Assembly (NCBI RefSeq): GCF_003334315.1
Contig: NZ_QOWR01000073.1
Strand: one strand, 5' to 3'
DNA length: 16,845 bases
Source: Escherichia coli
Lineage (GTDB): Bacteria; Pseudomonadota; Gammaproteobacteria; Enterobacterales; Enterobacteriaceae
A program made the translations under genes and the position numbers. This document shows, one piece after another, positions 1 through 15,973 of the stretch; the stretch's first letter is position 1, and each line of letters opens with the position of its first letter. Under the pieces are notes generated by a model. It had not been told where the DNA came from and did not search any database. It saw only the letters and a list, made by a program, of their open reading frames with translations.

Positions 1-357
1 GTCGGGGCTAAATCGCGCCAGCGCTGGCTGTTTTACGCGTATGACAGGCTCCGGAAGACGGTTGTTGCGCACGTATTCGGTGAACGCACTATGGCGACGC
101 TGGGGCGTCTTATGAGCCTGCTGTCACCCTTTGACGTGGTGATATGGATGACGGATGGCTGGCCGCTGTATGAATCCCGCCTGAAGGGAAAGCTGCACGT
201 AATCAGCAAGCGATATACGCAGCGAATTGAGCGGCATAACCTGAATCTGAGGCAGCACCTGGCACGGCTGGGACGGAAGTCGCTGTCGTTCTCAAAATCG
301 GTGGAGCTGCATGACAAAGTCATCGGGCATTATCTGAACATAAAACACTATCAATAA
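1..357 (+). CDS. insB: IS1 transposase InsB, C-terminal part (5'-truncated by window edge)
   Basis: Open frame from base 1 to TAA at 355-357; the ORF-track 88 aa segment (91..357) is the in-frame tail of InsB. Confidence 0.85.
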
Positions 358-372
358 GTTGGAGTCATTACC
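1..372 (+). mobile_element. Partial IS1 insertion sequence (3' portion, including the right terminal inverted repeat; 5' part lies outside the window)
   Basis: Frame-1 translation from base 1 reads the InsB C-terminal region (...[14 protein letters not shown]...[55 protein letters not shown]...HYQ*). The sequence ends with the characteristic IS1 terminus ...aaacactatcaataagttggagtcattacc at 343-372. Recognised from memory of IS1, not by search. Confidence 0.85.
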
Positions 373-386
373 CATCGCGTCTTATT

Positions 387-470
387 GCCGGATGCGGCGT
401 GAACACCTTATCCAGCACACATCTGGCAGCGGCTATAGGTCTGATAAGACGCGTTAGCGTCGCATCAGAC
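387..470. repeat. REP/BIME element: two REP units in opposite orientation
   Basis: gccggatgcggcgtgaacaccttatccagc (387-~416) and inverted unit taggtctgataagacgcgttagcgtcgcatcagac (435-470) are typical enterobacterial REP palindromes; located between the IS1 end and the yggR stop. Confidence 0.8.
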
Positions 471-520
471 ATTTATTGCCTTTGTAGGCCCAATAAGCTT
501 GCGCATCGGGCATGGCAACG

Positions 521-1501
521 TCACAAACGCCCTTCCCCCACCCGGTGCTGATAACTCTGCTGAAACGTTATCATCCCCACCTGCTGCCCGGTTTGAATAA
601 CATGCGGTAACTGGTGGGTTTTCCCTTCGCGAATCAAATTCCCCACCGCGGGTGTGTTAATCAGCAATTCAAATAGCGCCACGCGTCCTTCCTGTTTATC
701 CACTTCCAGCTTTTGTGACAACACGGCCCGTAAACTCCCTGCCAGTTGATTACGTACGGGATCTTTTTCCTGCGCCGGAAATGAATCCACCAGTCGCTCA
801 ACTGACTGCGCGGCACCACGCGTATGTAATGTTGCCAGCACCAAATGCCCGGTTTCTGCCGCCGTCAGTGCCAGACGGATTGTCTCGCTGTCACGCAGCT
901 CTCCGAGCAAAATCACATCAGGATCTTCCCGCAATGCGGCCCGCAATCCCGATGCGAACGTCATACAGTGCAAACCAATTTCCCGCTGCTGGATCAAACA
1001 TCGCTGGCTGGCATAGAGATATTCAACAGGATCTTCCAGCGTCAGAATATGCGCATCGGCATGTTGATTGAGATAGCCAACCATCGCCGCCAGCGTGGTA
1101 GATTTGCCGCTCCCCGTCGCCCCCGTCACCAGAATCAGGCCATTCTCGCTCTTGAGTAATTCCGGCAATACCGTTGGTGCGCCAAGCTGTTCGAGCTGCG
1201 GGCAGTGCGAAGGTAACAGCCGTAACGCCAGCGAAATGCCATGCCGTTGCGCGAATGCGCTGCCACGCAATCGCTGGTTTTCCGCCAGCGACACGGCAAA
1301 ATCCAGCTGGCCATTTTCCAGCAATATTGCCCGCTGATCGTCATCCAGCCACTCCCGCAGTAGCTCTTCGACGTCCGGCGCATCAAACGGCGCAGCTTCC
1401 ATTAGCCCGCGAATGCGCCATCGTGCGGGCCAGGCGCTGCACAGGTGTAGATCCGAGACGTTATGCTTTACACTAAGGGCCACAATTTCTTCCATATTCA
1501 T
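521..1501 (-). CDS. yggR: PilT-like type IV pilus retraction ATPase family protein YggR (326 aa)
   Basis: ORF 521..1576 (-); start trimmed to MNMEEIVALSVKHNVSDLH... (ATG at 1501) because a GAGGA Shine-Dalgarno lies 7 nt upstream and the longer version would overlap yggS. Walker A motif GATGSGKST present. Confidence 0.9.
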   Translation of the reverse strand: MNMEEIVALSVKHNVSDLHLCSAWPARWRIRGLMEAAPFDAPDVEELLREWLDDDQRAILLENGQLDFAVSLAENQRLRGSAFAQRHGISLALRLLPSHCPQLEQLGAPTVLPELLKSENGLILVTGATGSGKSTTLAAMVGYLNQHADAHILTLEDPVEYLYASQRCLIQQREIGLHCMTFASGLRAALREDPDVILLGELRDSETIRLALTAAETGHLVLATLHTRGAAQSVERLVDSFPAQEKDPVRNQLAGSLRAVLSQKLEVDKQEGRVALFELLINTPAVGNLIREGKTHQLPHVIQTGQQVGMITFQQSYQHRVGEGRL

Positions 1502-1518
1502 ACTAAGATCCTCGGAAA

Positions 1519-2223
1519 ATGAACGATATTGCGCATAACCTGGCACAGGTCCGGGACAAAATCTCAGCGGCTGCAACGCGTTGCGGCCGTTCTCCAGAAG
1601 AAATTACGCTGCTTGCAGTCAGTAAAACAAAACCTGCGAGCGCCATCGCAGAAGCCATTGATGCCGGGCAGCGTCAATTTGGTGAAAACTACGTTCAGGA
1701 AGGGGTAGATAAAATTCGCCACTTTCAGGAACTGGGCGTAACAGGATTAGAATGGCATTTTATTGGCCCGTTGCAGTCTAATAAAAGCCGCCTGGTGGCA
1801 GAGCATTTCGACTGGTGTCATACCATCGACCGTTTGCGCATCGCTACCCGTCTCAACGACCAGCGCCCGGCAGAACTTCCCCCTCTTAACGTTCTGATTC
1901 AAATTAACATTAGTGATGAAAACAGTAAGTCCGGGATTCAACTGGCTGAACTGGACGAGCTGGCAGCTGCGGTCGCTGAACTACCGCGTTTACGTCTGCG
2001 CGGGTTGATGGCAATCCCTGCGCCTGAGTCAGAATATGTAAGGCAGTTTGAAGTTGCACGCCAAATGGCTGTAGCATTTGCCGGACTGAAAACGCGCTAC
2101 CCGCATATCGACACGCTCTCTCTGGGAATGTCGGACGATATGGAAGCCGCCATTGCGGCAGGTAGCACGATGGTTCGTATCGGCACTGCAATTTTTGGTG
2201 CGCGTGATTACTCTAAAAAATAA
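1519..2223 (+). CDS. yggS: PLP homeostasis protein (YggS/PLPBP family, alanine racemase-fold PLP-binding)
   Basis: 234 aa ORF MNDIAHNLAQVRDKISAAA...; conserved lysine-containing N-terminal motif LLAVSKTKP; start only 17 bp from the divergent yggR start. Confidence 0.9.
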   Translation: MNDIAHNLAQVRDKISAAATRCGRSPEEITLLAVSKTKPASAIAEAIDAGQRQFGENYVQEGVDKIRHFQELGVTGLEWHFIGPLQSNKSRLVAEHFDWCHTIDRLRIATRLNDQRPAELPPLNVLIQINISDENSKSGIQLAELDELAAAVAELPRLRLRGLMAIPAPESEYVRQFEVARQMAVAFAGLKTRYPHIDTLSLGMSDDMEAAIAAGSTMVRIGTAIFGARDYSKK

Positions 2224-2240
2224 GGAATTAAAGGAACGCC

Positions 2241-2807
2241 ATGAATACGTTGACTTTCCTGCTTTCAACGGTCATTGAGCTGTATACCATGGTGCTGTTA
2301 TTACGCATCTGGATGCAGTGGGCTCATTGTGATTTTTACAACCCCTTCTCACAGTTTGTAGTGAAGGTAACGCAGCCAATTATCGGGCCACTGCGCCGCG
2401 TTATTCCGGCAATGGGGCCAATTGACAGCGCCTCGCTGCTGGTTGCCTATATTCTCAGTTTTATCAAAGCCATCGTGCTGTTTAAAGTGGTGACCTTCCT
2501 GCCAATCATCTGGATTGCCGGTTTACTGATTCTGCTGAAAACCATCGGCCTGCTGATTTTCTGGGTCCTGCTGGTGATGGCGATTATGAGCTGGGTAAGC
2601 CAAGGGCGTAGCCCGATTGAATACGTGCTGATTCAGCTGGCCGATCCGCTGCTGCGCCCGATTCGCCGCCTGCTACCGGCAATGGGTGGGATTGATTTCT
2701 CGCCGATGATCCTCGTTCTGCTGCTGTATGTCATCAATATGGGTGTCGCAGAAGTATTACAGGCAACCGGAAATATGCTGCTGCCAGGGCTGTGGATGGC
2801 GTTATGA
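2241..2807 (+). CDS. yggT: YggT family integral membrane protein
   Basis: 188 aa hydrophobic ORF with a duplicated YGGT-type repeat; 17 bp after the yggS stop with GGAA SD-like sequence. Confidence 0.88.
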
Positions 2808-3094
2808 ATGCCGTAACAGTTAATGATGACGGTCTGGTTTTACGGCTCTATATTCAGCCGAAAGCCAGCCGTGATTCTATTGTCGGTTTACATGGCGACG
2901 AAGTTAAAGTCGCCATTACCGCGCCGCCGGTTGACGGCCAGGCCAACAGCCATCTGGTGAAGTTTCTCGGTAAGCAATTCCGGGTAGCCAAAAGCCAGGT
3001 GGTAATTGAAAAAGGCGAACTTGGCCGCCACAAACAAATTAAAATCATTAATCCGCAACAAATCCCGCCAGAAATCGCGGCGTTAATTAATTAG
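2804..3094 (+). CDS. yggU: DUF167 family protein YggU (96 aa)
   Basis: ORF 2792..3094; start assigned to ATG 2804 ([24 protein letters not shown]...), which overlaps the yggT stop as ATGA. Confidence 0.85.
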
Positions 3095-3101
3095 GTATCC
3101 T

Positions 3102-3695
3102 ATGCAAAAAGTTGTCCTCGCAACCGGCAATGCCGGTAAAGTGCGTGAGCTGGCGTCGCTGCTTAGCGACTTCGGTCTTGATATCGTGGCCCAAACAGAC
3201 CTCGGCGTAGATTCCGCTGAAGAAACCGGCCTGACCTTTATCGAAAACGCGATTCTGAAAGCGCGCCATGCGGCAAAAGTGACCGGTTTACCGGCAATTG
3301 CCGACGACTCTGGTCTGGCGGTAGATGCGCTGGGTGGCGCGCCGGGTATTTACTCCGCGCGTTATTCCGGTGAAGACGCGACCGATCAAAAGAATCTGCA
3401 AAAACTGTTGGAAACACTGAAAGACGTACCGGACGACCAACGTCAGGCGCGTTTCCACTGCGTGCTGGTATATCTGCGTCACGCGGAAGATCCCACTCCG
3501 CTGGTGTGCCACGGTAGCTGGCCGGGCGTGATTACTCGTGAACCAGCGGGCACTGGTGGCTTTGGTTATGATCCAATCTTCTTCGTACCTTCCGAAGGGA
3601 AAACCGCTGCCGAACTGACCCGCGAAGAAAAGAGCGCCATTTCCCACCGTGGTCAGGCATTGAAACTGCTGTTGGACGCTTTACGTAATGGTTAA
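3102..3695 (+). CDS. rdgB: dITP/XTP pyrophosphatase (non-canonical purine NTPase, Ham1/RdgB family)
   Basis: 197 aa [19 protein letters not shown]...; family motifs TGNxGK and FGYDPIF present. Confidence 0.92.
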
Positions 3696-4824
3696 ATTAC
3701 CGCCGCTGAGTCTCTACATTCACATCCCGTGGTGCGTGCAGAAATGCCCGTACTGCGATTTCAACTCTCACGCGTTGAAAGGAGAAGTGCCGCACGACGA
3801 TTACGTTCAGCATCTGCTTTGCGATCTGGACAATGATGTGGCTTACGCTCAGGGCCGTGAAGTAAAGACAATCTTTATTGGCGGTGGTACGCCGAGCCTG
3901 CTTTCCGGCCCGGCGATGCAAACGCTGCTGGACGGCGTGCGTGCGCGTTTGCCGCTGGCAGCGGATGCAGAAATTACTATGGAAGCGAACCCTGGTACGG
4001 TAGAAGCCGATCGCTTTGTCGATTATCAGCGTGCTGGTGTGAACCGCATCTCTATTGGTGTGCAGAGTTTTAGCGAAGAAAAGCTGAAACGACTTGGGCG
4101 CATTCATGGCCCGCAAGAAGCGAAACGAGCGGCAAAGCTGGCGAGCGGTTTAGGGTTACGTAGCTTTAACCTTGATTTGATGCATGGACTACCGGATCAA
4201 TCACTGGAAGAGGCGCTTGGCGATCTACGCCAGGCCATTGAACTGAATCCGCCGCATCTTTCCTGGTATCAACTGACCATCGAACCCAATACGCTGTTTG
4301 GTTCGCGACCACCGGTGCTGCCGGACGACGACGCGCTGTGGGATATATTCGAACAGGGGCATCAGTTATTAACCGCAGCGGGTTATCAGCAATATGAAAC
4401 TTCCGCTTACGCCAAACCCAGTTATCAGTGCCAGCACAATCTCAACTACTGGCGCTTTGGCGACTACATCGGTATTGGCTGCGGCGCGCACGGCAAAGTG
4501 ACCTTCCCGGATGGGCGCATTCTGCGTACCACTAAAACGCGTCATCCGCGTGGTTTTATGCAAGGAAGGTATCTGGAAAGCCAGCGTGATGTCGAAGCCG
4601 CAGATAAGCCGTTTGAGTTCTTTATGAACCGCTTTCGCTTGCTGGAGGCCGCGCCACGCGCAGAGTTTAGTGCGTATACCGGGCTTTGCGAAGATGTGAT
4701 TCGCCCACAGTTAGACGAGGCGATTGCCCAGGGTTATCTCACCGAATGTGCGGATTACTGGCAGATAACGGAACATGGGAAGCTGTTTTTAAATTCGCTG
4801 CTGGAGCTTTTTCTGGCTGAGTAA
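3688..4824 (+). CDS. hemW: Radical SAM family heme chaperone HemW (coproporphyrinogen III oxidase-like)
   Basis: 378 aa ORF with a CxxxCxYC radical-SAM cluster motif (CVQKCPYC); start overlaps the rdgB 3' end by 8 nt. Confidence 0.9.
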
Positions 4825-4833
4825 ACTTGTATT

Positions 4834-4952
4834 GCCGGATGCGGCGTGAACGCCTTATCCAGCCGACATGTGGCAGCGGTTGTAGGTCTGATAAGACGCG
4901 CAAGCGTCGCATCAGACGTTGATTGCCGGATGCGGGGTCAACGCCGCATCCT
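4834..4952. repeat. REP/BIME cluster (three REP-like palindromic units)
   Basis: gccggatgcggcgtgaacgccttatccagc (4834-~4863), inverted unit taggtctgataagacgcgcaagcgtcgcatcagac (4881-~4916), third unit gccggatgcggggtcaacgccgcatcc (4925-~4951). Lies between the convergent hemW and yggM 3' ends. Confidence 0.8.
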
Positions 4953-4978
4953 GCTACAAATCGTGCACTATATCAAAC

Positions 4979-5986
4979 TTACTTAATCACCCCATTGCGC
5001 CGCAGTTGTTCGGTATCTTTTTTCCAGCGTTCATTAGCTTGGTTGATATCGTCAATTTTCATCAAAATCGCGACTTTTTTACTGTTTATTTCTGAAACTT
5101 TCATCGTTAACGGATATTGCCCTTTTTCGAGCGTTACCCAGTCATCCTGCAATTTACGGCTGAGTTTTTGTGATTGCAGAAAAGTCTGTCGCCGTTGTTC
5201 GTTGATATCGAAATCTCGTTTCTGCTGAATCGGCACTTCATAACACTCTTCACTCTGTTTATGACATGCCGCAATCGCCGGTTGATAAACCTCTTTGTCA
5301 TATTTAACCGCGAACGCCTCGCTATCGTTCTGTTTATTAAACTCATCACGCTGTTGGTGAATTTTTTTAAAGGCTTCTTCACGGGTCATTTGCTTACCGT
5401 TTGCATCTTTTCCCCAATATGCATCCGCTGCTTTCTGCGCCGCCACCATTTGCTTATCAAGCGCTTTCACTTCCTTTTCCAGCGCAGGAATCGAGTTCTT
5501 CTGGGTATTCAACGCAGATTCAAGCTGACTAAAGCGATAATTGAAATCTTCGCTATTCACGATCAGATATTTATTATTCGTTTTGATATCGTCGACCACC
5601 CGCCCACGATCGCTGGCTGCCGCCTGAAAAGAGTAAAAGTTCACCGACCAGCCAGACGCGGGCGTTCCTTTACTGGTTAACATCGCCGAGAATTTTACCG
5701 GTTTATCTTTCGTCCAGGTCTGTTCGAGCAGTTCGTAATCTGCCAACTGACCGACCCAGGTATAGAGATCGTCACTGGAAGAGACATCGCCTTCCGCTGA
5801 CCAGGTGGCCTGATTACCCTTAGCATCAAGATTTTTTAAGGTGATAGCATCAAGCTTGAGAATGCCGTGATACTGCTTTTTGAATTGATCTTTTAAGATA
5901 TTTTCAGTTGGCGGTTCGCCATCTGCCCAGACATTACCAGTCATCAACATAAGCAGCGCCGTGCCAACAATCCATTGCTTTTTCAC
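4979..5986 (-). CDS. yggM: Secreted protein of unknown function YggM (DUF1202-like), N-terminal signal peptide
   Basis: 335 aa ORF MKKQWIVGTALLMLMTGNVWADGEPP...; signal peptide with an AxA-type cleavage site (VWA/DG); K/E/Q-rich, probably coiled-coil C-terminal half. Confidence 0.85.
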   Translation of the reverse strand: MKKQWIVGTALLMLMTGNVWADGEPPTENILKDQFKKQYHGILKLDAITLKNLDAKGNQATWSAEGDVSSSDDLYTWVGQLADYELLEQTWTKDKPVKFSAMLTSKGTPASGWSVNFYSFQAAASDRGRVVDDIKTNNKYLIVNSEDFNYRFSQLESALNTQKNSIPALEKEVKALDKQMVAAQKAADAYWGKDANGKQMTREEAFKKIHQQRDEFNKQNDSEAFAVKYDKEVYQPAIAACHKQSEECYEVPIQQKRDFDINEQRRQTFLQSQKLSRKLQDDWVTLEKGQYPLTMKVSEINSKKVAILMKIDDINQANERWKKDTEQLRRNGVIK

Positions 5987-6067
5987 CCGAAAACCCTCGC
6001 GCAGAATAATTTATTCCGGTGATTATCATTAGGGTAATTAAAATTGGCAATGGACGTGAGTCTGAAG

Positions 6068-6094
6068 TGAAAAAGCCCCGGCACGATACCGGGG
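6068..6094 (-). terminator. Rho-independent terminator downstream of ansB
   Basis: Minus-strand transcript carries hairpin ccccggtatcgtgccgggg (perfect 7 bp GC-rich stem, plus coordinates 6076-6094) followed by cttttt, starting about 8 nt after the ansB stop. Confidence 0.7.
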
Positions 6095-6102
6095 CGAGGC
6101 GA

Positions 6103-7149
6103 TTAGTACTGATTGAAGATCTGCTGGATCTGCTGCGGATCTTTGGTTTGCGTCAGAGCCAGTTGCAGCAGAACGCGCGCTTTTTGCGGGTTCAGCGTGC
6201 CAGAGGCGACGAAGCCGTATTTCGCATCATCCACTTCGGCATCCTGAGTGGTAGCGCCCGTCGGTACGCGGGAAGAACGCACGACTGCAGTACCGGTTTT
6301 CGCGGCGGTCGCCAGCGTGTCGAACACAGATTTATACAGGTTGCCGTTACCCACACCAGCGCTAACGATGCCATCATAGCCCGCATCTACCAGTGCTTTA
6401 GCCGGAAGATCGGATGCGTTAGCGTAGTTATAAACAATGCCGACTTTCGGCAGTTCATTCAGCTTAGAGACATCGAATGGCGTGTCGCTGGTATGCTTAC
6501 GTGCCGGGGTACGCTGGTAGTCAATCTTACCGTTGTGAATGTAACCCAGAGGACCGTAGTTAACAGACTTGAAGGTCGCTACGTCGGTGGTGTTGGTTTT
6601 GGTGACGTCACGGCCATCAAGCACGGTGTCATTCATCACTACCAGCACGCCACGGTTGGCGGAGGCTTTATCAGCTGCGGTCACTACCGCGTTATACAGG
6701 TTGAATGGACCGTCTGCGCTCATGGACGTGGACGGGCGCATTGCGCCGACCATCACCACCGGTTTGTCGCATTTCACCGTCAGGTCGAGGAAGTAAGCGG
6801 TTTCTTCCATCGTGTCGGTACCGTGGGTAATGACGAAGCCGTCGGTTTTATCGCAGTCGGTGTTAATTTTTTTCGCCAGTGTCAGCCAGACATTATCGTT
6901 CATGTCCTGGGAGCCGATATTCACTACCTGCTCGCCTTTAACGTTCGCAATGTCCTTCAGTTGCGGCACCGCATTAACCAGATTTTCTACGCCAACTTTA
7001 CCCGCTGTGTAGTTAGATTTGGTTGCGGAGTCACCACCACCGGCAATGGTCCCGCCGGTTGCTAAAATGGTGATATTGGGTAATGCCAATGCTGCACCAC
7101 TAAAACCCATAACCAGTGCGGCAAGTGCCGTCTTTTTGAAAAACTCCAT
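6103..7149 (-). CDS. ansB: Periplasmic L-asparaginase II
   Basis: 348 aa ORF MEFFKKTALAALVMGFSGAALALPNITILATGGTIAGGG...; signal peptide followed by the asparaginase active-site motif TGGTIAG. Confidence 0.95.
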   Translation of the reverse strand: MEFFKKTALAALVMGFSGAALALPNITILATGGTIAGGGDSATKSNYTAGKVGVENLVNAVPQLKDIANVKGEQVVNIGSQDMNDNVWLTLAKKINTDCDKTDGFVITHGTDTMEETAYFLDLTVKCDKPVVMVGAMRPSTSMSADGPFNLYNAVVTAADKASANRGVLVVMNDTVLDGRDVTKTNTTDVATFKSVNYGPLGYIHNGKIDYQRTPARKHTSDTPFDVSKLNELPKVGIVYNYANASDLPAKALVDAGYDGIVSAGVGNGNLYKSVFDTLATAAKTGTAVVRSSRVPTGATTQDAEVDDAKYGFVASGTLNPQKARVLLQLALTQTKDPQQIQQIFNQY

Positions 7150-7179
7150 TTCATTCCTCCAGTTACGTGAACGCTACGC

Positions 7180-7220
7180 ATTATCCCTTAGCTTTGTATG
7201 GGAAAATTGACGTTAAACAA
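7180..7220 (-). promoter_or_regulatory. ansB promoter: FNR-like site (7207-7220) plus -10 hexamer (7180-7185)
   Basis: On the coding strand TTGTTTAACGTCAA matches the FNR consensus TTGAT-N4-ATCAA at 8/10 positions; GATAAT lies about 21-26 bp downstream, the spacing expected for a class II site centred near -41.5. ansB is known to be anaerobically induced by FNR (established knowledge); the site assignment itself is by eye. Confidence 0.55.
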
Positions 7221-7255
7221 TTTACAACATGAATATATTTTGGAGATCTACAAAG

Positions 7256-7271
7256 TTAGAGGCAGGTAACA
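7256..7271 (-). promoter_or_regulatory. Possible weak CRP/FNR-type upstream site of the ansB promoter
   Basis: Coding-strand TGTTAcctgccTCTAA, about 50 bp upstream of the FNR-like site (expected -91.5 geometry); poor match to TGTGA-N6-TCACA. Confidence 0.3.
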
Positions 7272-7285
7272 AAACGAAGAATTAA

Positions 7286-7310
7286 ACGGCATAAAAAAGT
7301 ATTATGCCGT
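7286..7310 (-). terminator. Putative terminator downstream of yggN
   Basis: Inverted repeat acggcataa/ttatgccgt (9 bp stem, 7 nt loop) about 15 nt beyond the yggN stop; on the minus strand it is followed by a moderately T-rich tract (ttaattcttcgtttt). Confidence 0.4.
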
Positions 7311-7324
7311 CTTAAAATAGAGGA

Positions 7325-8044
7325 TTATTTTAAATTCCCGACCAGGGCTTTGCGGCTATCTTCCAGAGTCACAACGCGGCTACAAACATCTTTGCCAAAC
7401 TGCTGGAAATCTTTTTCCTGCTTTTTCCACTCGGTTTGGATTGAGGATTGCAGCCCCCCCAGGCTTCCCAGCACATTCTGTAATGGGTTACCGCCGCTTT
7501 TCAGCACCGCTTTCGCGCCCATTTCATTAATGCTGTCCTGTAAAATTCCACCCATTGCCTGATTCACTAATTGCTGGCCTTCGGCGCGAACCTGATCAAT
7601 GGCTTTATAGTGAAACGTCAGGCCATCGCTGCGCGTTTCAATAATGCGGTTCATCTGCTCTTTCAGCTGCGCATCAAGTTTGGTCAGACGGCTGCGCATT
7701 TTGCTGCTTTCGCCCATCTCCTGAACGATAATTTTATCCAGAGCAATACGGGCTTTCTCGACGCGGCTTTTCGCGCCTTCATCAATCCACGGCAGCGTGC
7801 TGCGTAGTTCAGCCTGATAATCCTTCGCCTGCTCGCGCTGGGCGGCATTCAGGGAATATTGCTTACCGTTATACATCACGTTGCCGTCTGGCGTGATCAC
7901 CAGATTGCCGTTTTCGCCCTTCACCTGCACGGTTTGCGGGCTGACAATCACATCGTCACGCGGCGTGACGTTGCACTGGTAGTCGGCGTGAGCGGTCATT
8001 GCCGTCACTGAAAGTGCTGCCGCCAGCAGCATTTTGCGCATCAT
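7325..8044 (-). CDS. yggN: Secreted protein of unknown function YggN (DUF2884-like), N-terminal signal peptide
   Basis: 239 aa ORF MMRKMLLAAALSVTAMTAHADYQCN...; signal peptide; good SD (GAGGGAAG) upstream. Confidence 0.85.
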   Translation of the reverse strand: MMRKMLLAAALSVTAMTAHADYQCNVTPRDDVIVSPQTVQVKGENGNLVITPDGNVMYNGKQYSLNAAQREQAKDYQAELRSTLPWIDEGAKSRVEKARIALDKIIVQEMGESSKMRSRLTKLDAQLKEQMNRIIETRSDGLTFHYKAIDQVRAEGQQLVNQAMGGILQDSINEMGAKAVLKSGGNPLQNVLGSLGGLQSSIQTEWKKQEKDFQQFGKDVCSRVVTLEDSRKALVGNLK

Positions 8045-8116
8045 AGTCTTCCCTCAAGAAAAAATCAGGCCAGCATTTGCTGGCCCCAGATTGATAACAA
8101 AGTACGCGTTTTCCAT

Positions 8117-8195
8117 GCCGGATGCGGCGTAAACACCTTATCCCGCCTACTCGATCGTGCATCTTTCCAGGCCTGATAAGCGTAGCGCATCAGGC
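8117..8195. repeat. REP/BIME element (two REP units in opposite orientation)
   Basis: gccggatgcggcgtaaacaccttatcccgcctac (8117-8150) and gcctgataagcgtagcgcatcaggc (8171-8195); between the yggL 3' end and the yggN 5' end. Confidence 0.8.
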
Positions 8196-8227
8196 AGTTT
8201 TGCATTTGTCATCGCCCGTATGCTTTC

Positions 8228-8554
8228 TTAGTCCCACCAAACGTCGAAAAGTTCGCTGGTGCGTACCTCATCCAGTTTGCGCTCTTCCAGCCACTTACGC
8301 ACAATCGCCTGATGTTCTTCGGTGCATTTGCCGATTTCCTGCATGCAGATCAGACCTTCCCAGGCCAGATAACCGCTGCCGTCAAAGGCCAGTTTGTTCG
8401 GTTCGATAACCTCGTTAATAAAATCATCAACGGTTTTATCAATCTGTTCTTCCGATGTACCTTCCGGGAATCGCCATGCCACCGAAAATCCTAATTCCTG
8501 GAATTCGTCGATGTGCATTTTTTTACGCAGACGACGGCTACGGTTCTTTGCCAT
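8228..8554 (-). CDS. yggL: DUF469 family protein YggL (108 aa)
   Basis: ORF 8228..8584; start trimmed to [23 protein letters not shown]... (ATG 8554-8552), which overlaps the trmB stop as TAATG. Confidence 0.85.
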   Translation of the reverse strand: MAKNRSRRLRKKMHIDEFQELGFSVAWRFPEGTSEEQIDKTVDDFINEVIEPNKLAFDGSGYLAWEGLICMQEIGKCTEEHQAIVRKWLEERKLDEVRTSELFDVWWD

Positions 8555-9273
8555 TATTTCACCCTCTCGAACATTAAGTCCCATACTCCGTGACCAAGAC
8601 GATGACCACGTTGTTCAAATTTCGTCACCGGACGTGATGCCGGACGCGGTACGTAATCATTGCTCTCTGACAGGTTTTTATAACCGTCAATAGAAGACAT
8701 CACTTCAAGCATATGTTCCGCATAAGGTTCCCAGTCGGTCGCCATATGGAATACGCCCCCCAGCTGCAGTTTGCTTTTTACCAGTTCGGCAAACGGCACC
8801 TGAACGATACGGCGTTTATTATGGCGCGCTTTGTGCCACGGGTCAGGGAAAAAGAGCTGCACCATGCGCAATGAATTGTCAGGAATCATTTTATGCAGCA
8901 CTTCAACCGCATCGTGACACATCACGCGCAGGTTGCTTAAACCTTCTTCATGCGCAGAAGCCAGGCACGCACCAACGCCCGGTGAATGCACTTCAATGCC
9001 GAGGAAGTCCTGCTCAGGGCGATCTTTAGCCATTGCCACCAGCGACGCCCCCATGCCAAAACCAATCTCAAGCGTCACCGGCGCTTCACGGCCAAAAAGC
9101 GCGGGGAAATCCAGCATATCTTCGCTGAACTCAACGCCCATCACCGGCCAGTAGTTTTCCAGCGCATGTTCCTGGCCTTTGGTCAGTCGCCCCTGGCGGC
9201 GCACAAAACTACGGATACGGCGCAGTGGGCGGCCGTTTTCATCAAATTCCGGTGAAATGACGTCGTTTTTCAT
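8554..9273 (-). CDS. trmB: tRNA (guanine46-N7)-methyltransferase
   Basis: 239 aa [46 protein letters not shown]...; SAM-binding motif region EIGFGMG. Confidence 0.92.
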
Positions 9274-9433
9274 AAAGGTTTAGTCGCTTGTGAAAGTGTT
9301 CTGAAAACGGGCATTATCCAAAGTTAGTTGCCGGATGCAAGCATGATAAGGCCGTGGCTGCGGAAAGTTCCGGTTTACACCCTGCCGTCGCTGTGCTGCA
9401 ATCTTGCCCCCAACAACAGTGAATTCGGTGACC

Positions 9434-10486
9434 ATGCAAGCGTCGCAATTTTCAGCCCAGGTTCTGGACTGGTACGATAAATACGGGCGAAAAACTCTGC
9501 CCTGGCAAATTGACAAGACGCCCTACAAAGTATGGCTCTCAGAAGTGATGTTGCAACAAACTCAGGTTGCGACCGTTATCCCCTATTTTGAACGCTTTAT
9601 GGCGCGCTTCCCGACGGTGACCGATCTCGCCAATGCGCCGCTCGACGAAGTTCTCCACTTGTGGACCGGGCTTGGCTATTACGCCCGCGCGCGCAATCTG
9701 CATAAAGCGGCACAACAAGTGGCGACCTTACACGGCGGTAAATTCCCGGAAACCTTTGAGGAAGTTGCAGCACTGCCGGGCGTCGGGCGTTCCACCGCAG
9801 GCGCGATTCTCTCGCTTTCTCTGGGTAAGCACTTTCCGATTCTCGACGGTAACGTCAAACGGGTGCTGGCGCGCTGCTATGCTGTAAGCGGCTGGCCAGG
9901 GAAAAAAGAGGTCGAGAATAAATTATGGAGTTTGAGCGAGCAGGTGACGCCCGCGGTTGGCGTGGAACGGTTTAATCAGGCGATGATGGATTTGGGTGCG
10001 ATGATTTGTACGCGCTCGAAACCGAAATGTTCGCTCTGTCCGCTACAAAACGGATGTATTGCCGCCGCCAACAATAGCTGGGCGCTTTATCCGGGCAAAA
10101 AACCGAAACAGACGCTGCCGGAGCGCACCGGCTACTTTTTGCTATTACAGCACGAAGATGAAGTATTGCTGGCGCAGCGTCCGCCGAGCGGATTGTGGGG
10201 CGGTTTATACTGTTTCCCGCAGTTTGCCGACGAAGAAAGTTTGCGGCAGTGGCTGGCGCAACGGCAGATTGCTGCCGATAACCTGACGCAACTGACCGCG
10301 TTTCGGCATACCTTCAGCCATTTCCACTTAGATATTGTGCCTATGTGGCTTCCCGTGTCGTCATTCACCGGCTGCATGGATGAAGGCAATGCGCTCTGGT
10401 ATAACTTAGCGCAACCGCCGTCAGTTGGCCTGGCGGCTCCCGTGGAGCGTTTGTTACAGCAGTTACGCACTGGCGCGCCGGTTTAG
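9434..10486 (+). CDS. mutY: Adenine DNA glycosylase (A/G-specific) MutY, 350 aa
   Basis: ORF 9404..10486; start trimmed to [25 protein letters not shown]...; helix-hairpin-helix region and [4Fe-4S] cysteine cluster ([17 protein letters not shown]) present. Confidence 0.92.
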
Positions 10487-10510
10487 CGCGTGAGTCGATA
10501 AAGAGGATGA

Positions 10511-10789
<279 letters not shown>

Positions 10790-10795
10790 AAACAG

Positions 10796-10816
10796 TGCCG
10801 GAGCACGCCTCCGGCA
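10796..10816 (+). other. Stem-loop between yggX and mltC (no U-tract)
   Basis: tgccggag-cacgc-ctccggca, perfect 8 bp stem, 7 nt after the yggX stop; followed by aacttgcataaaaac rather than a T-run, so not a canonical intrinsic terminator. Confidence 0.4.
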
Positions 10817-10826
10817 ACTTGCATAA

Positions 10827-11933
<1,107 letters not shown>

Positions 11934-11944
11934 TTCCATTAACC

Positions 11945-11966
11945 GCCCCTGACGATGCTCAGGGGC
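11945..11966 (+). other. Stem-loop immediately downstream of mltC
   Basis: gcccctga-cgatgc-tcaggggc (8 bp stem), 11 nt after the mltC stop, followed by aaaaatg (no U-tract): possible weak terminator or RNA processing/stability element. Confidence 0.35.
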
Positions 11967-11971
11967 AAAAA

Positions 11972-11987
11972 TGTTATCCACATCACA
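11972..11987 (+). promoter_or_regulatory. Candidate CRP-binding site in the nupG upstream region
   Basis: TGTTAtccacaTCACA matches TGTGA-N6-TCACA at 9/10 positions, about 150 bp upstream of the nupG start. nupG is a known CRP/CytR-regulated gene (established knowledge); this site assignment is by eye. Confidence 0.45.
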
Positions 11988-12134
11988 ATTTCGTTTTGCA
12001 AATTGGGAATGTTTGCAATTATTTGCCACAGGTAACAAAAAACCAGTCCGCGAAGTTGATAGAATCCCATCATCTCGCACGGTCAAATGTGCTTTTTCAA
12101 ACACTCATCCGCATCACGATGTGAGGAAATTAAC

Positions 12135-13391
12135 ATGAATCTTAAGCTGCAGCTGAAAATCCTCTCTTTTCTGCAGTTCTGTCTGTGGGGAAGTTGGCTG
12201 ACGACCCTCGGTTCCTATATGTTTGTTACCCTGAAGTTTGACGGTGCTTCTATTGGCGCAGTTTATAGCTCACTGGGTATCGCCGCGGTCTTTATGCCTG
12301 CGCTGCTGGGGATTGTGGCCGACAAATGGTTAAGTGCGAAATGGGTATATGCCATTTGCCACACCATTGGCGCTATCACGCTGTTCATGGCGGCACAGGT
12401 CACGACGCCGGAGGCGATGTTCCTTGTGATATTGATTAACTCGTTTGCTTATATGCCAACGCTTGGGTTAATCAACACCATCTCTTACTATCGCCTGCAA
12501 AATGCCGGGATGGATATCGTTACTGACTTCCCGCCAATCCGTATCTGGGGCACCATCGGCTTTATCATGGCAATGTGGGTGGTGAGCCTGTCTGGCTTCG
12601 AATTAAGCCACATGCAGCTGTATATTGGCGCAGCTCTTTCCGCCGTTCTGGTTCTGTTTACCCTGACTCTGCCGCATATTCCGGTTGCTAAACAGCAAGC
12701 GAATCAGAGCTGGACAACCCTGCTGGGCCTCGATGCATTCGCGCTGTTTAAAAACAAGCGTATGGCAATCTTCTTCATCTTCTCAATGCTGCTGGGCGCG
12801 GAACTGCAGATTACCAACATGTTCGGTAATACCTTCCTGCACAGCTTCGACAAAGATCCGATGTTTGCCAGCAGCTTCATCGTGCAGCATGCGTCAATCA
12901 TCATGTCGATTTCGCAGATCTCTGAAACCCTGTTCATTCTGACCATCCCGTTCTTCTTAAGCCGCTACGGTATTAAGAACGTAATGATGATCAGTATTGT
13001 GGCGTGGATCCTGCGTTTTGCGCTGTTTGCTTACGGCGACCCGACTCCGTTCGGTACTGTACTGCTGGTACTGTCGATGATCGTTTACGGTTGCGCATTC
13101 GACTTCTTCAACATCTCTGGTTCGGTGTTTGTCGAAAAAGAAGTTAGCCCGGCAATTCGCGCCAGTGCACAAGGGATGTTCCTGATGATGACTAACGGCT
13201 TCGGCTGTATCCTCGGCGGCATCGTGAGCGGTAAAGTTGTTGAGATGTACACCCAAAACGGCATTACCGACTGGCAGACCGTATGGTTGATTTTCGCTGG
13301 TTACTCCGTGGTTCTGGCCTTCGCGTTCATGGCGATGTTCAAATATAAACACGTTCGTGTCCCGACAGGTACACAGACGGTTAGCCACTAA
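12135..13391 (+). CDS. nupG: Nucleoside:H+ symporter NupG (MFS-type transporter), 418 aa
   Basis: ORF 12087..13391; start trimmed to MNLKLQLKILSFLQFCLWGSWLTTLG... (ATG 12135) with SD gaggaa 8 nt upstream; 12-TM hydrophobic profile. Confidence 0.92.
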   Translation: MNLKLQLKILSFLQFCLWGSWLTTLGSYMFVTLKFDGASIGAVYSSLGIAAVFMPALLGIVADKWLSAKWVYAICHTIGAITLFMAAQVTTPEAMFLVILINSFAYMPTLGLINTISYYRLQNAGMDIVTDFPPIRIWGTIGFIMAMWVVSLSGFELSHMQLYIGAALSAVLVLFTLTLPHIPVAKQQANQSWTTLLGLDAFALFKNKRMAIFFIFSMLLGAELQITNMFGNTFLHSFDKDPMFASSFIVQHASIIMSISQISETLFILTIPFFLSRYGIKNVMMISIVAWILRFALFAYGDPTPFGTVLLVLSMIVYGCAFDFFNISGSVFVEKEVSPAIRASAQGMFLMMTNGFGCILGGIVSGKVVEMYTQNGITDWQTVWLIFAGYSVVLAFAFMAMFKYKHVRVPTGTQTVSH

Positions 13392-13401
13392 TTACGCAAA
13401 G

Positions 13402-13437
13402 AAAAACGGGTCGCCAGAAGGTGACCCGTTTTTTTTA
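13402..13437. terminator. Bidirectional rho-independent terminator between convergent nupG and speC
   Basis: aaaaa-acgggtcgcc-agaa-ggtgacccgt-tttttttt: 10 bp stem (one G.U), 4 nt loop, A-tract 5' and T-tract 3', so it reads as a terminator on both strands. Confidence 0.85.
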
Positions 13438-13440
13438 TTC

Positions 13441-15576
13441 TTACTTCAACACATAACCGTACAACCGTTTCATGCCATCCGCATCGGTTTCGCTATAAAC
13501 ACCTTGCAGCTCCGGCGAAAATCCCGGCAACAAATTCACCCCTTCTTCCAGTGCAAGGAAATAACGTTGAACCGCCCCACCCCAGACTTCCCCGGGTACC
13601 ACGCAAAGCACGCCAGGTGGATAAGGCAACGCCCCTTCTGCCGCAATTCGCCCTTCGGCATCACGAATCCGCACCAACTCCACGTCACCGCGAATATAAG
13701 CGCTATGCGCATCCTGGGGGTTCATCACCACTGACGGGAAACTCTGCTGGCGGAACATCGCTTTTTGTAGGTCTTTGACGTCGAAACTGACATACAGATC
13801 GTGCATCTCCTGACACAACTGGCGCAGGGTGTAGTCGCGATAGCGCACCGGATACTTGTTATAAACGCTCGGCAACACCTCAACCAGCGGCGAGTCATCC
13901 TCAATATGCTGTTCAAATTGCGCCAGCATCGCCACCAGTTGTGCCAGCTTCTCGTGGCTTTCCGCCGGAGTTAATAAAAACAGAATGGAGTTGAGATCGC
14001 ACTTCTCCGGCACAATGCCGTTCTCACGCAGATAGTGCGCCAGAATCGTCGCCGGAACGCCAAAGTCGCTATATTCGCCGGTTTCGGCATCGATACCTGG
14101 TGTAGTGAGTAACAGCTTGCACGGATCAACAAAATACTGATCCGCGGCATATCCTTCAAAGCCGTGCCACTTCGCCCCCGGCTCAAAACTGAAAAAACGG
14201 CGGTCGCTGGCTAACACTGATGTCGGATAATCCTGCCACAATTTGCCATCAACAACGGGCGGGATAAACGGGCGGAACAGCTTACAGCGCGCAAGAATAG
14301 CCTTGCGCGCTTCAATCCCTATCTCAACACACTCAGCCCACAGCCGACGCCCACTCTCCCCTTCATGAATTTTGGCGTTAACATCCAGTGCAGCAAACAG
14401 CGGATAGAAAGGGCTGGTAGAAGCATGGAGCATAAAGGCGTTATTCAACCGCTTATGCGGGCAAAAACGCGCCTGTCCGCGGATATGGTTATCTTTTTTA
14501 TGGATCTGCGACGTCTGTGAGAATCCCGCCTGCTGTTTGTGCACCGACTGAGTCACAAAGATCCCCGGATCGTTTTCGTTAAGTTCTAACAGCAGCGGCG
14601 AGCTATCCGCCATCATCGGGATAAATTGTTCATAACCGACCCACGCGGAATCAAACAGAATGTAATCACACAGATGCCCAACGGTATCGATCACCTGACG
14701 GGCGTTATAGACAGTGCCGTCATAGGTTCCCAGCTGAATAATCGCCAGGCGATACGGGCGCGGCAGGTCGGCTTTTTCTGGCGCAACGTCGCGAATTTGC
14801 TGGCGCAGATACTCTTCATTAAAACAGTGCGCATCAATACCGCCAATGAAACCAAACGGGTTGCGTGAAGCTTCCAGATAGACCGGCGTCGCCCCCGCCT
14901 GAATCAGCGCGCCGTGATGATTCGACTTATGGTTGTTACGGTCGAAGAGCACCAGATCGCCACGCGTTAACAGCGCATTCGTCACCACTTTATTCGCTGC
15001 CGATGTGCCGTTCAGCACAAAATAGGTTTTATCGGCATGAAAGACTTTGGCTGCGAATTTCTGCGCATCTTTCGCCGATCCTTCATGAATAAGCAGATCG
15101 CCCAATTTTACGTCAGCGTTACACATATCGGCGCGAAAGACGTTCTCACCAAAGAAATCGTAAAAATGGCGTCCGGCAGGATGCTTTTTAAAAAACGCAC
15201 CATGTTGATGTCCAGGGCAAGCAAAGGTGCTGTTGCCCATCTCAACGTACTGCGTCAGCGTGTCATAAAACGGTGGCAGCAAATTCTCTTCATACTGACA
15301 GGCTGCGGATTCCAGCTCCAGCCACTGCTGCTCGTTGCCGTTGATTACCGCCGTAACGCCCGCAGGTAATTCAACAGCATGTTTGGAATACAAAAACACC
15401 GGTAGATGAAAACCGGTGCGCTTAAGCAACGCAAGAATGCCACTGCGACTATCCGCAGCGGTAATGACGACTGCCGCGACGTCCGTAAAATCAGTATCTC
15501 CCAACGCCACCACGCGACGATGAGAAGAAAGTCGGGATACCAGTTCACTACTGGCGGCAATATTCATTGATTTCAT
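13441..15576 (-). CDS. speC: Ornithine decarboxylase (constitutive/biosynthetic type), 711 aa
   Basis: ORF 13441..15636; start trimmed to MKSMNIAASSELVSRLSSHRRVVALGDTDF... (ATG 15576); Orn/Lys/Arg decarboxylase family with a PLP-lysine region. Confidence 0.9.
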   Translation of the reverse strand: MKSMNIAASSELVSRLSSHRRVVALGDTDFTDVAAVVITAADSRSGILALLKRTGFHLPVFLYSKHAVELPAGVTAVINGNEQQWLELESAACQYEENLLPPFYDTLTQYVEMGNSTFACPGHQHGAFFKKHPAGRHFYDFFGENVFRADMCNADVKLGDLLIHEGSAKDAQKFAAKVFHADKTYFVLNGTSAANKVVTNALLTRGDLVLFDRNNHKSNHHGALIQAGATPVYLEASRNPFGFIGGIDAHCFNEEYLRQQIRDVAPEKADLPRPYRLAIIQLGTYDGTVYNARQVIDTVGHLCDYILFDSAWVGYEQFIPMMADSSPLLLELNENDPGIFVTQSVHKQQAGFSQTSQIHKKDNHIRGQARFCPHKRLNNAFMLHASTSPFYPLFAALDVNAKIHEGESGRRLWAECVEIGIEARKAILARCKLFRPFIPPVVDGKLWQDYPTSVLASDRRFFSFEPGAKWHGFEGYAADQYFVDPCKLLLTTPGIDAETGEYSDFGVPATILAHYLRENGIVPEKCDLNSILFLLTPAESHEKLAQLVAMLAQFEQHIEDDSPLVEVLPSVYNKYPVRYRDYTLRQLCQEMHDLYVSFDVKDLQKAMFRQQSFPSVVMNPQDAHSAYIRGDVELVRIRDAEGRIAAEGALPYPPGVLCVVPGEVWGGAVQRYFLALEEGVNLLPGFSPELQGVYSETDADGMKRLYGYVLK

Positions 15577-15973
15577 AAGCGCAAACCCGTTTCGGGGAAG
15601 TAAGAATACCGGACAAGGTGGAAAACCCTGCCCCATGAGATATGGGTCAAACTGGTCACCAGCTCCGACCGCCAGACATCAGTAAAAGCAGAAACGCTCT
15701 GATTTTACTGTTGTCCTGCAGTGAGCGTGCGTTAACTTCACCGCATGAGCAGTAACATAGAAAGGGAAACGTTTCGCGCGAAACGGCGATAAGCGAGAGA
15801 ATGTAAGGAGATGGCGTGCATCGGGCAAACTCCGTACAGAGAGGAGAAAATTCGCGCAATCATGGCACCTTTCGCTAAAGCGTGCAAGCCAGGACTTTGC
15901 GAACAAACAAGCCATCGACGGCACCAAACGGTCATAATAAGAAAATCAAACAATACAGTTAACAGGAACTCTT

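Follow-up and report, generated by a model that had tools for sequence, protein, structure and literature searches.

Structure of the yggR Locus

The window, that is, the whole stretch of 16,845 nucleotides analysed here, belongs to contig NZ_QOWR01000073.1 of an Escherichia coli assembly. From position 373 to 16845 it is collinear with the genome of E. coli W5-6 at 99.9% identity. The list of open reading frames and their translations revealed an intact 326-aa frame on the minus strand (Table 1). Its product is 100% identical to the annotated yggR product of W5-6 and differs from the K-12 protein at three residues (R33L, T41A, and A233S), none of which falls in a motif. This gene is yggR (b2950), an ordinary gene, known before, for the E. 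coli version of the type IV pilus retraction motor PilT.

The yggR gene is flanked by an IS1 remnant and REP/BIME palindromes on one side and by yggS-yggT-yggU-rdgB-hemW, starting at 1519 and divergent from yggR, on the other. The IS1 element was inserted about 35 bp past the position of the ruvX stop codon in the K-12 alignment and left yggR untouched; at this junction it was found in 0 of 5426 complete E. coli genomes. The insB remnant is on the plus strand and is therefore convergent with yggR. The REP/BIME segment has the sequence that lies between ruvX and yggR in K-12. This layout agrees with an earlier sequence-only reading of the window, which had also found no pilin, platform, or secretin genes within 16 kb; none is annotated in the stretch 373–16845 collinear with W5-6. 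Rfam gave no match within or adjoining yggR.

The stop codon of yggR is at 521–523 and its ATG at 1499–1501. A longer, TTG-initiated frame up to 1576 is mechanically possible. The ATG at 1501 is preferred because it is preceded by a GAGGA ribosome-binding site, is shared by 30 of the 30 enterobacterial loci compared, and aligns with Met1 of Pseudomonas aeruginosa PilT (PaPilT); it is also the annotated K-12 start. The sequence CCGAGGAT at the ribosome-binding site is kept in 27 of 30 loci, the exceptions being L028 (Cedecea), L031 (Enterobacter), and L040.

Table 1. Features of the yggR region, in window coordinates.
Feature	Position	Strand	Evidence
Right-hand part of IS1 (insB 3' end and terminal inverted repeat)	1–372	+	ORF 91–357, IS1 matches, K-12 junction mapping
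REP/BIME palindromes downstream of yggR	373–520		K-12 alignment; inverted repeats including 434–452/457–475
yggR coding sequence, 326 aa and stop	521–1501	-	ORF, TIGR01420, Pfam T2SSE, similarity to 3jvu
AVGNLIRE, residues 285–292, lineage-specific variant of the PilT signature AIRNLIRE	626–649	-	PaPilT alignment
His box TGHLVLATLHT, residues 217–227	821–853	-	PaPilT alignment; invariant in 28 sequences
Walker B DPDVILLGELRD, residues 193–204, catalytic Glu201	890–925	-	PaPilT alignment; invariant in 28 sequences
Asp box LTLEDPVE, residues 153–160	1022–1045	-	PaPilT alignment; invariant in 28 enterobacterial sequences
Walker A GATGSGKST, residues 127–135, Lys133	1097–1123	-	Motif search and PaPilT alignment; invariant in 28 enterobacterial sequences
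yggR codons 1–22, reduced synonymous variation, presumed yggS promoter and leader	1436–1501	-	28 enterobacterial sequences
17-bp gap separating the start codons of yggR and yggS, which are divergent	1502–1518		Sequence, K-12 comparison
Ribosome-binding site GAGGA, 7 nt 5' of the yggR ATG	1509–1513	-	Read from the sequence
yggS codons 1–45, strongly reduced synonymous variation, presumed yggR promoter and leader	1519–1653	+	Per-codon synonymous profile
Perfect CRP-S-type palindrome TGCGAGCGCCATCGCA (TGCGA-N6-TCGCA), yggS codons 39–44, candidate CRP site for yggR	1635–1650		Exact match

Family and ATPase Motifs of YggR

YggR matches the NCBIfam model TIGR01420 (pilT_fam) over model positions 1–328 of 343 with 468.4 bits (e-value 1.4e-140), against a curated cut-off of 319.1 bits for the whole protein, and it matches the Pfam domain T2SSE with the e-value 1.9e-48. 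The best solved relative is PaPilT (3jvu, e-value 1.5e-82, residues 1–324), and the similarity to the solved PilT hexamers 3jvu, 2ewv, and 6ojx is full-length. The assignment to the PilT/PilU secretion-ATPase family, proposed earlier from the Walker A motif, is thus borne out by both domain searches. Loss of the ATPase motifs, which would have pointed to a pseudogene, is not observed: all motifs are present in the intact frame. By its similarity to the solved hexamers, YggR probably forms a hexameric ring engaging a PilC-type platform protein; two-hybrid self-interaction was reported for a Walker B mutant of YggR (bioRxiv 10.1101/2021.10.23.465551).

The exact PilT signature AIRNLIRE is absent from YggR, where AVGNLIRE matches it at 6 of 8 positions. 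Signature positions 2–3 are variable (AVG, AAG, ATG, AVA, or AVS), and the IR pair is seen in 0 of 28 enterobacterial sequences. The variant was discussed in a preprint, in which native YggR was active, restoration of AIR left its behaviour unchanged, and the E201A mutant was inactive (bioRxiv 10.1101/2021.10.23.465551).

Comparison with PilT, PilU, and Extension ATPases

PaPilT (PA0395; 3JVU/3JVV) is 46.0% identical to YggR over the full length. Both proteins have a two-domain architecture without the PilB-type N1 domain, both carry the Walker A, Asp box, Walker B, and His box motifs, and both genes are positioned divergently from yggS. They differ in that the C-terminus of YggR is 18 residues shorter and in the signature variant described above. 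No pilU follows yggR, whereas pilT of P. aeruginosa is followed by pilU; the gap between the start codons of yggS and the motor gene is 17 bp for yggR and 214 bp for P. aeruginosa pilT; and the neighbouring operon includes proC in P. aeruginosa but not in its E. coli counterpart yggS-yggT-yggU.

The functional similarity to PilT was reported in Vibrio cholerae, where PilT is the retraction motor of the competence pilus. K-12 YggR fully complements the pilT and pilTU deletions for natural transformation, depending on its ATPase activity (Walker A and Walker B). ATPase-dead YggR does not support PilU-dependent retraction, unlike PilT from V. cholerae, A. baylyi, and P. stutzeri, and this defect was explained neither by the AIRNLIRE variant nor by the short C-terminus (all bioRxiv 10.1101/2021.10.23.465551).

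PilU belongs to the same NCBIfam family TIGR01420, and the solved PilU structure 9n32 matches YggR with the e-value 2.1e-69. However, P. aeruginosa PilU is only 37.7% identical to YggR, the score of YggR is 280.7 bits against PaPilT and 237.5 bits against the solved PilU, and PilU has a long C-terminal extension and does not show the exact PilT forms of the tested motifs. YggR is also active without PilT, unlike PilU (bioRxiv 10.1101/2021.10.23.465551). On the identity values and this function, the reading of YggR as a PilU rather than a PilT was rejected. The extension and secretion ATPases HofB, PilB, and GspE share the T2SSE ATPase core with YggR, which gives partial matches of 130–155 bits, far under their family cut-offs (617–675 bits), covering about 180–240 of the 465–564 model positions. 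YggR does not include the N-terminal domains and the zinc-binding region of these proteins.

Conservation and Selection

Of 5426 complete E. coli genomes, 5425 carry yggR. When the gene is compared with its counterparts in Escherichia, Citrobacter, Salmonella, Klebsiella, Cedecea, and Enterobacter, dN/dS is 0.04–0.12, close to the values of the housekeeping neighbour yggS, and yggR is under strong purifying selection. At the same time, YggR is shortened in Shigella flexneri (313 aa), S. boydii (302 aa), and some E. coli, the gene is disrupted by a premature stop in Salmonella Saintpaul lineage IB (PMC8731237), and the copies in loci L029 and L032 are frame-disrupted. Because of these shortened and disrupted copies, yggR is taken to be dispensable in some niches.

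Such copies, together with the loss of pilU, are what would be expected if yggR were a decaying relic, a pilT left over after the pilus became useless and now without function. PpdD pili are also undetectable in K-12 in laboratory conditions without artificial sxy expression (PMC3330819, PMC1635313). Nevertheless, dN/dS stays low even between genera with nearly saturated synonymous sites, the catalytic motifs are invariant in 28 of 28 sequences, and 5425 of the 5426 complete E. coli genomes have a full-length copy of the gene; these observations rule out a pseudogene and largely refute the relic, which is moreover contradicted by the activity of K-12 YggR as a retraction motor in V. cholerae (bioRxiv 10.1101/2021.10.23.465551). 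A relic is therefore highly improbable.

Genomic Neighbourhood

All 30 enterobacterial loci compared keep the arrangement of yggR and yggS (three of them without a recovered yggS), as do two homologues from farther away. Among the distant homologues, L040 keeps the synteny and the palindrome site described below, with a CCGCA core; L041 keeps the short gap to yggS and has no palindrome site; and L042, which is 49% identical to YggR, lies in an unrelated neighbourhood. In P. aeruginosa, yggU-yggT-proC-yggS is divergent from pilT-pilU. As pilT and yggS are arranged alike there, the head-to-head position of yggR and yggS is ancestral, judging from these gene orders.

The persistence of the pilT/yggS-(proC)-yggT-yggU layout from Pseudomonas to E. 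coli, and the overlap of the regulatory regions of yggR and yggS, could also be explained by functional coupling, with YggR recruited to a non-pilus task tied to yggS-yggT-yggU (PLP homeostasis, or envelope or osmotic functions) or to central metabolism. P. aeruginosa PilT and PilU act as twitching-motility motors. Since this canonical pair occupies the same neighbourhood, the synteny is no sign of a non-pilus role, and the homologue L042 is found without that neighbourhood. A PykA:YggR interaction appeared in two high-throughput studies (PMC8167557) and yggR overexpression was found in a screen for HOCl resistance (PMC8228696), both being high-throughput data without follow-up. Full retraction activity of YggR on a heterologous pilus (bioRxiv 10.1101/2021.10.23.465551) also argues for a pilus function, and recruitment to another task is unlikely.

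Pilus Partners and Proposed Function

In the sequence-only reading, YggR was described as an orphan ATPase of poorly defined function in non-twitching enterobacteria. The gene is orphaned only locally. It looks orphaned because its pilus partner genes are scattered over three other chromosomal loci, which in K-12 are ppdD-hofB-hofC, hofMNOPQ, and ppdA-ppdB-ygdB-ppdC; thus, the lack of partners in the window stands, while each of the three clusters is present in 5425–5426 of the 5426 complete E. coli genomes. Judging from the 99.9% identical relative, the strain of the window probably has a complete type IVa pilus gene set.

The function is better defined than this description implies, given the retraction activity known from the heterologous host. 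Neither a deletion phenotype of yggR in E. coli nor a report of YggR action on PpdD pili was found in the searchable literature. The label "non-twitching" is inexact, because the PpdD pilus of enterohemorrhagic E. coli (EHEC) was reported to support twitching motility (PMC2920817).

Taken as a whole, the best explanation is that yggR encodes a PilT-type hexameric ATPase, the retraction motor of the chromosomally encoded E. coli type IVa pilus (probability about 0.8). It builds on the observed family, motifs, purifying selection, synteny, and universal presence of the gene and its partner loci, and on retraction of a heterologous pilus known from the literature. The native substrate of YggR would be the PpdD pilus, built from the pilin PpdD, the extension motor HofB, the platform HofC, HofMNOPQ as alignment complex and secretin, and PpdA/PpdB/YgdB/PpdC as minor pilins. 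If YggR works as PilT does, its hexamer probably binds the platform protein on the cytoplasmic side of the inner membrane, where ATP hydrolysis, through Lys133 of Walker A and Glu201 of Walker B, would move pilin subunits out of the base of the filament and back into the membrane. The gene has stayed at the ancestral pilT position adjoining yggS, and relative to Pseudomonas the enterobacterial lineage has lost pilU and shortened the intergenic region to 17 bp.

Presumed Promoters Embedded in the Opposite Genes

The gap between the yggR and yggS start codons is 14–17 bp in 27 of 30 related loci; the other three yielded no yggS, and the 2 bp obtained for L011 result from an artefact of start calling. 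In L040 the gap is 15 bp, and in L041 it is 14 bp. Because the start codons in the window are only 17 bp apart, each promoter must lie within the opposite gene. A shared control region, through which co-regulation of yggR with yggS-yggT had been suggested, does not fit: the gap is too short for either promoter and rules out a conventional shared region. With the intergenic region this short, yggR must be transcribed from a promoter within the initial ~135 nt of yggS.

Both genes begin with a stretch of reduced synonymous variation (Table 1), and the one in yggS extends exactly as far as the distal palindrome edge. No sigma-70 promoter for yggR or yggS was detected by a simple consensus scan of 300–2300, and inspection by eye gave weak candidates only, none of which was assigned.

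A CRP-S-Type Palindrome inside yggS

The palindrome is located 134–149 bp upstream of the yggR ATG and corresponds to MG1655 3,095,214–3,095,229. The CRP-S core searched, T4G5C6G7A8-N6-T15C16G17C18A19, has one exact match in the window against 0.04 expected. In 328 kb of enterobacterial DNA, 14 exact core matches were found, all at this yggS site and none elsewhere. The stretch shows the lowest synonymous diversity in yggS (rank 1 of 228 seven-codon windows). Its spacer varies in five lineages, in which the core pentamers are unchanged. The palindrome is symmetric in Escherichia, Salmonella, Leclercia, and Enterobacter and asymmetric in Citrobacter, Klebsiella, and Cedecea; the TTCGA core is seen in most Citrobacter and a Klebsiella MAG, and CCGCA in Cedecea and L040.

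The candidate resembles the CRP-S sites of the E. coli Sxy regulon in its core and in its position upstream of a type IV pilus gene. The ppdD gene has TTCGT-N6-TCGCA at -144, which we take to be its CRP-S site, similar in form and distance to the yggR candidate at -149; CRP bound a fragment containing the ppdD site, and ppdD is induced by Sxy (PMC1635313). The candidate differs in that it lies within a coding sequence and is perfectly symmetric in Escherichia. It does not match the asymmetric half-sites of described E. coli CRP-S sites, a feature required for Sxy dependence, and a symmetric TGCGA/TCGCA site in the sxy promoter is active regardless of Sxy (PMC6728893). Therefore, the E. coli yggS site may be dependent on CRP but not on Sxy. 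Cameron and Redfield 2006 includes no mention of pilT or yggR, and a full-text literature search for yggR and Sxy with pilT found nothing relevant to regulation.

The palindrome has slightly better than even odds of not being regulatory, with yggR transcribed at a constant low level by a promoter that has nothing to do with it. The constraint could come from amino acids or codons of YggS after the PLP-binding Lys36, as the palindrome encodes P-A-S-A-I-A adjoining the conserved SKTK motif. L041 lacks the site but retains the unusual CCT codon for Pro, and so coding constraints may account for part of the conservation. One core pentamer is changed in many genera, and no -10/-35 pair was found at a standard distance. 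Against a purely coding constraint, exact matches are very rare, all four core wobble positions are fixed, the stretch is the least synonymously variable of the whole gene, and amino-acid changes gather in the spacer rather than in the cores. CCT and GCA are minor codons in E. coli. Asymmetric forms such as TTCGA-N6-TCGCA also fit the asymmetry known from CRP-S sites in E. coli (PMC6728893). An RNA hairpin was suggested by a terminator scan, which flagged the palindrome followed by a T-run on the yggR-sense strand. It was rejected, as the fold at 1633–1652 (-9 kcal/mol) is no better than shuffled sequences (z = 0.09 on the yggR-sense strand) and is lost without compensatory changes in C. youngae and Cedecea.

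If the palindrome is nevertheless regulatory, its CRP-S type suggests co-regulation of yggR with pilus and competence genes rather than with yggS-yggT. Dependence of yggR transcription on cAMP-CRP at the candidate site, with or without Sxy, is possible at somewhat less than even odds. More tentatively, the yggR promoter may be hidden in the yggS coding sequence and activated by cAMP-CRP through this site, with Sxy where the site is asymmetric. This would place the motor in the competence/type IV pilus regulon and the yggS stretch under dual coding and regulatory selection. The symmetric site of Escherichia could make retraction CRP-dependent but Sxy-independent.

Implications

The yggR gene is not new in itself, being annotated as a PilT/PilU-family ATPase in E. 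coli genomes, with motor activity known in a heterologous host. The embedded CRP-S-type candidate is the only point here of possible specialist interest. If functional, it would be a clear case of a regulatory element constraining the synonymous positions of a neighbour gene, and it would account for coordination between the retraction motor and the PpdD/Hof pilus genes, which are silent otherwise.

Family Placement of YggR

YggR belongs to the PilT/PilU family on all criteria tested, the exact AIRNLIRE signature excepted. With the NCBIfam PilT/PilU family model TIGR01420 (cut-off 319 bits) it reached 468 bits, whereas it stayed far under the cut-offs of the profiles for GspE, PilB, DotB, VirB11 and related families. 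The T2SSE domain match (Pfam, 1.9e-48) confirmed the family proposed in the sequence-only reading, whose coordinates, strand and Walker A motif are also correct. The closest solved structure is the hexamer of Pseudomonas aeruginosa PilT (PaPilT), matched with 1.5e-82 over the full length of YggR, and the other best solved relatives are the PilT hexamers of Aquifex, Geobacter, and Thermus. YggR is nearer to PilT than to PilU, while the PilT signature AIRNLIRE is replaced by AVGNLIRE, and the C-terminus stops 18 residues earlier than that of PaPilT. A PilT/PilU-type annotation of yggR is present in all E. coli genomes.

Mechanical extension of the reading frame reaches a TTG at 1576. The ATG at 1501 is favored as the start because GAGGA lies upstream at the proper distance, because the same start is used in 30/30 related loci, and because it aligns with Met1 of PaPilT.

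Features of the yggR region, motifs of YggR, and pilus gene clusters of K-12
Feature	Position	Description
IS1 copy	1-372	right-hand part
ruvX-yggR intergenic match	373-520	one base different from K-12; REP-type palindromes
yggR	521-1501, minus strand	ATG 1499-1501, stop 521-523; 326 residues
yggS	start 1519	17 bp from yggR start codon
Palindrome	1635-1650	TGCGAGCGCCATCGCA (TGCGA-N6-TCGCA), perfect; inside yggS, 134-149 bp upstream of yggR start
Walker A	YggR residues 127-135	GATGSGKST
Asp box	YggR residues 153-160	LTLEDPVE
Walker B	YggR residues 193-204	DPDVILLGELRD
His box	YggR residues 217-227	TGHLVLATLHT
ppdD-hofB-hofC	near 0.117 Mb in K-12	
ppdA-ppdB-ygdB-ppdC	near 2.96 Mb in K-12	
hofMNOPQ	near 3.52 Mb in K-12	

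Selection, Activity, and Losses

Among 28 sequences, the four ATPase motifs show little or no variation. Comparison of the window yggR with its orthologues gave pairwise dN/dS values of 0.04-0.12, with dS reaching and passing saturation, and yggS shows values in the same range. Three residues, none of them within the motifs, distinguish the window protein from K-12 YggR (R33L, T41A, and A233S).

The activity of YggR was demonstrated in Vibrio cholerae, in a preprint from a laboratory working on the competence pilus of that species. K-12 YggR (NP_417425) fully restored natural transformation in pilT and pilTU deletion mutants, and its Walker A and Walker B (E201A) mutants failed to do so (bioRxiv 10.1101/2021.10.23.465551). 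[quoted passage not shown] The literature search found no paper on the phenotype of E. coli deleted for yggR. yggR is functional; its reading as a decaying relic was rejected on the grounds of selection and activity, and the retained motifs dispose of the pseudogene that the sequence-only reading had named as its refutation.

yggR can nevertheless be lost in some lineages. YggR is truncated in Shigella flexneri (313 aa) and S. boydii (302 aa), and one lineage of Salmonella Saintpaul is marked by a premature yggR stop (PMC8731237). The frame is also broken in Leclercia adecarboxylata NCTC13032 (locus L029, 4001-4974) and Citrobacter amalonaticus AUH_CA_2023_1 (locus L032, 4001-4981), with 10-12 in-frame stops; these disruptions are either genuine or the product of long-read sequencing errors.

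Genomic Context and Ancestry

The downstream order from yggS is yggT, yggU, rdgB, and hemW. E. coli W5-6 is collinear with 373-16845 at 99.9% identity, and its annotation of this stretch, from yggR through yqgA and tRNA-Phe, includes no pilin, platform, secretin or any other pilus gene. The earlier claim that no partners occur within 16 kb is thus upheld. The description of an orphan ATPase holds for the window but not for the chromosome, where the K-12 type IVa pilus genes besides yggR occupy three separate loci. Each cluster was found, at >=80% coverage, in 5425 or all of the 5426 complete E. coli genomes, and yggR in 5425 of them. The scattered type IVa pilus system, including the YggR motor, thus belongs to the E. 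coli core genome.

The position of yggR beside yggS is ancestral. At the P. aeruginosa pilT locus (L036, 4094-7361), yggU, yggT, proC, and yggS lie on one strand, divergent from pilT and pilU on the opposite strand, and yggS is separated from pilT by 214 bp; the juxtaposition is therefore older than the split between enterobacteria and pseudomonads. The enterobacterial locus differs in having neither pilU nor proC and a far shorter intergenic region. yggR adjoins yggS in 30/30 loci from Escherichia, Citrobacter, Salmonella, Klebsiella, Cedecea, Leclercia, and Enterobacter. The distance between the two start codons is 14-17 bp in the 27 loci with callable yggS (a 2-bp gap computed for one locus, L011, is a start-calling artefact), 15 bp in a 60%-identical metagenome homologue, and 14 bp in a 51%-identical homologue.

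The IS1 copy ends at 372/373, ~35 bp past the position of the K-12 ruvX stop codon. This junction was found in 0/5426 complete E. coli genomes, whose best matches span only 373-2300. Between hemW and yggM, 4885-4955 (minus strand) matches the REP-derived nucleoid-associated RNA naRNA4/CssrE (Rfam, 60.9 bits; gathering score 59.5). At 4855-4918, the window has ~64 bases more than W5-6, which probably reflects a different number of REP copies. At 16787-16845, the window breaks off within a tRNA gene (tRNA-Phe in W5-6), of which it includes only the 5' part; an integrase gene follows it in W5-6, so this is likely an island integration site.

Divergent Promoters and a Candidate CRP-S-Type Site

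The sequence-only reading proposed a control region shared by yggR and yggS-yggT. With start codons only 17 bp apart, and little in the spacer beyond the yggR ribosome-binding site, no such region exists, and the yggR promoter must lie within yggS and the yggS promoter within yggR. A consensus promoter scan of 300-2300 found none for either gene. Suppression of synonymous variation is limited to codons 1-22 in yggR and covers most of codons 1-45 in yggS, after which variation returns to the gene average; both profiles agree with promoters embedded in the opposite gene.

Two further observations concern this region. A GATC (Dam) site in the spacer (1507-1510) overlaps the yggR ribosome-binding site. 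It is found in Escherichia, C. amalonaticus (L008 and L032), the enterobacterial locus L009, a Klebsiella MAG (L027), and Leclercia (L029), and is probably incidental since most Citrobacter do not have it. Codons 170-178 of yggS (SEYVRQFEV, 2026-2052) show essentially zero synonymous variation over nine codons in 27 enterobacterial sequences, and could contain an RNA element or an internal signal that serves the expression of yggT.

The palindrome lies at the distal edge of the suppressed zone of yggS, and by its sequence corresponds to the core of CRP-S, a non-canonical class of CRP site that acts with Sxy to switch on the genes for competence and type IV pili in gamma-proteobacteria (PMC1635313; PMC6728893). 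It is the sole exact core match in the window (0.04 expected), and the 14 exact matches obtained from the 328 kb of enterobacterial sequence searched all fall at this position of yggS. The seven codons containing it have the lowest synonymous diversity among 228 seven-codon windows of yggS, and 4/4 wobble positions within the pentamers are fixed. CCT and GCA are minor codons in E. coli. Amino-acid changes of YggS in five lineages fall in the 6-bp spacer and spare the pentamers. In K-12, TTCGT-N6-TCGCA is located at -144 from the ppdD start codon, compared with -149 for the yggR site, and the ppdD upstream region depends on both Sxy and CRP and is bound by CRP (PMC1635313).

Against the site, one half is TTCGA in most Citrobacter and the Klebsiella MAG, through YggS A44E, and the other is CCGCA in Cedecea and the 60%-identical homologue (L040), although asymmetric halves are typical of E. 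coli CRP-S sites (PMC6728893). The 51%-identical homologue has no site but keeps the CCT codon, and the negative promoter scan also counts against the site. A purely coding constraint on yggS is at present the more likely explanation of the conserved palindrome, and its function as a CRP-type site is a tentative reading, at somewhat less than even odds. A symmetric TGCGA/TCGCA placed in the sxy promoter was active at any Sxy level (PMC6728893); thus, the putative Escherichia site may answer to CRP alone. The phylogenetic footprinting study of 2006 was confined to orthologues of H. influenzae CRP-S genes and made no mention of pilT. An RNA hairpin or terminator found no support: the yggR-sense strand folds no better than shuffled sequences, and the fold is lost uncompensated in other genera.

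Proposed Function of YggR

YggR would act as the PilT-type motor that retracts the PpdD/Hof type IVa pilus; as a hexameric ATPase, it would engage the platform protein at the inner membrane and depolymerise the filament into the membrane. Both this native substrate and the regulation of YggR are what we infer. In EHEC, a published study attributed twitching motility to the PpdD pilus, also called the haemorrhagic coli pilus (PMC2920817). The analysis also considered a role connected with yggS-yggT or with metabolism. A PykA:YggR interaction appeared in two independent studies (PMC8167557), and yggR was among the results of an overexpression screen for HOCl resistance (PMC8228696). However, the interaction data are all high-throughput, and the ancestral synteny on the yggS side also flanks the canonical pilT-pilU pair of P. 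aeruginosa.

The identification of yggR as a retraction ATPase gene holds but is not new, and the activity of YggR has been published. Only the candidate CRP-S-type site embedded in yggS and the overlapping divergent promoters may be worth a small experiment.
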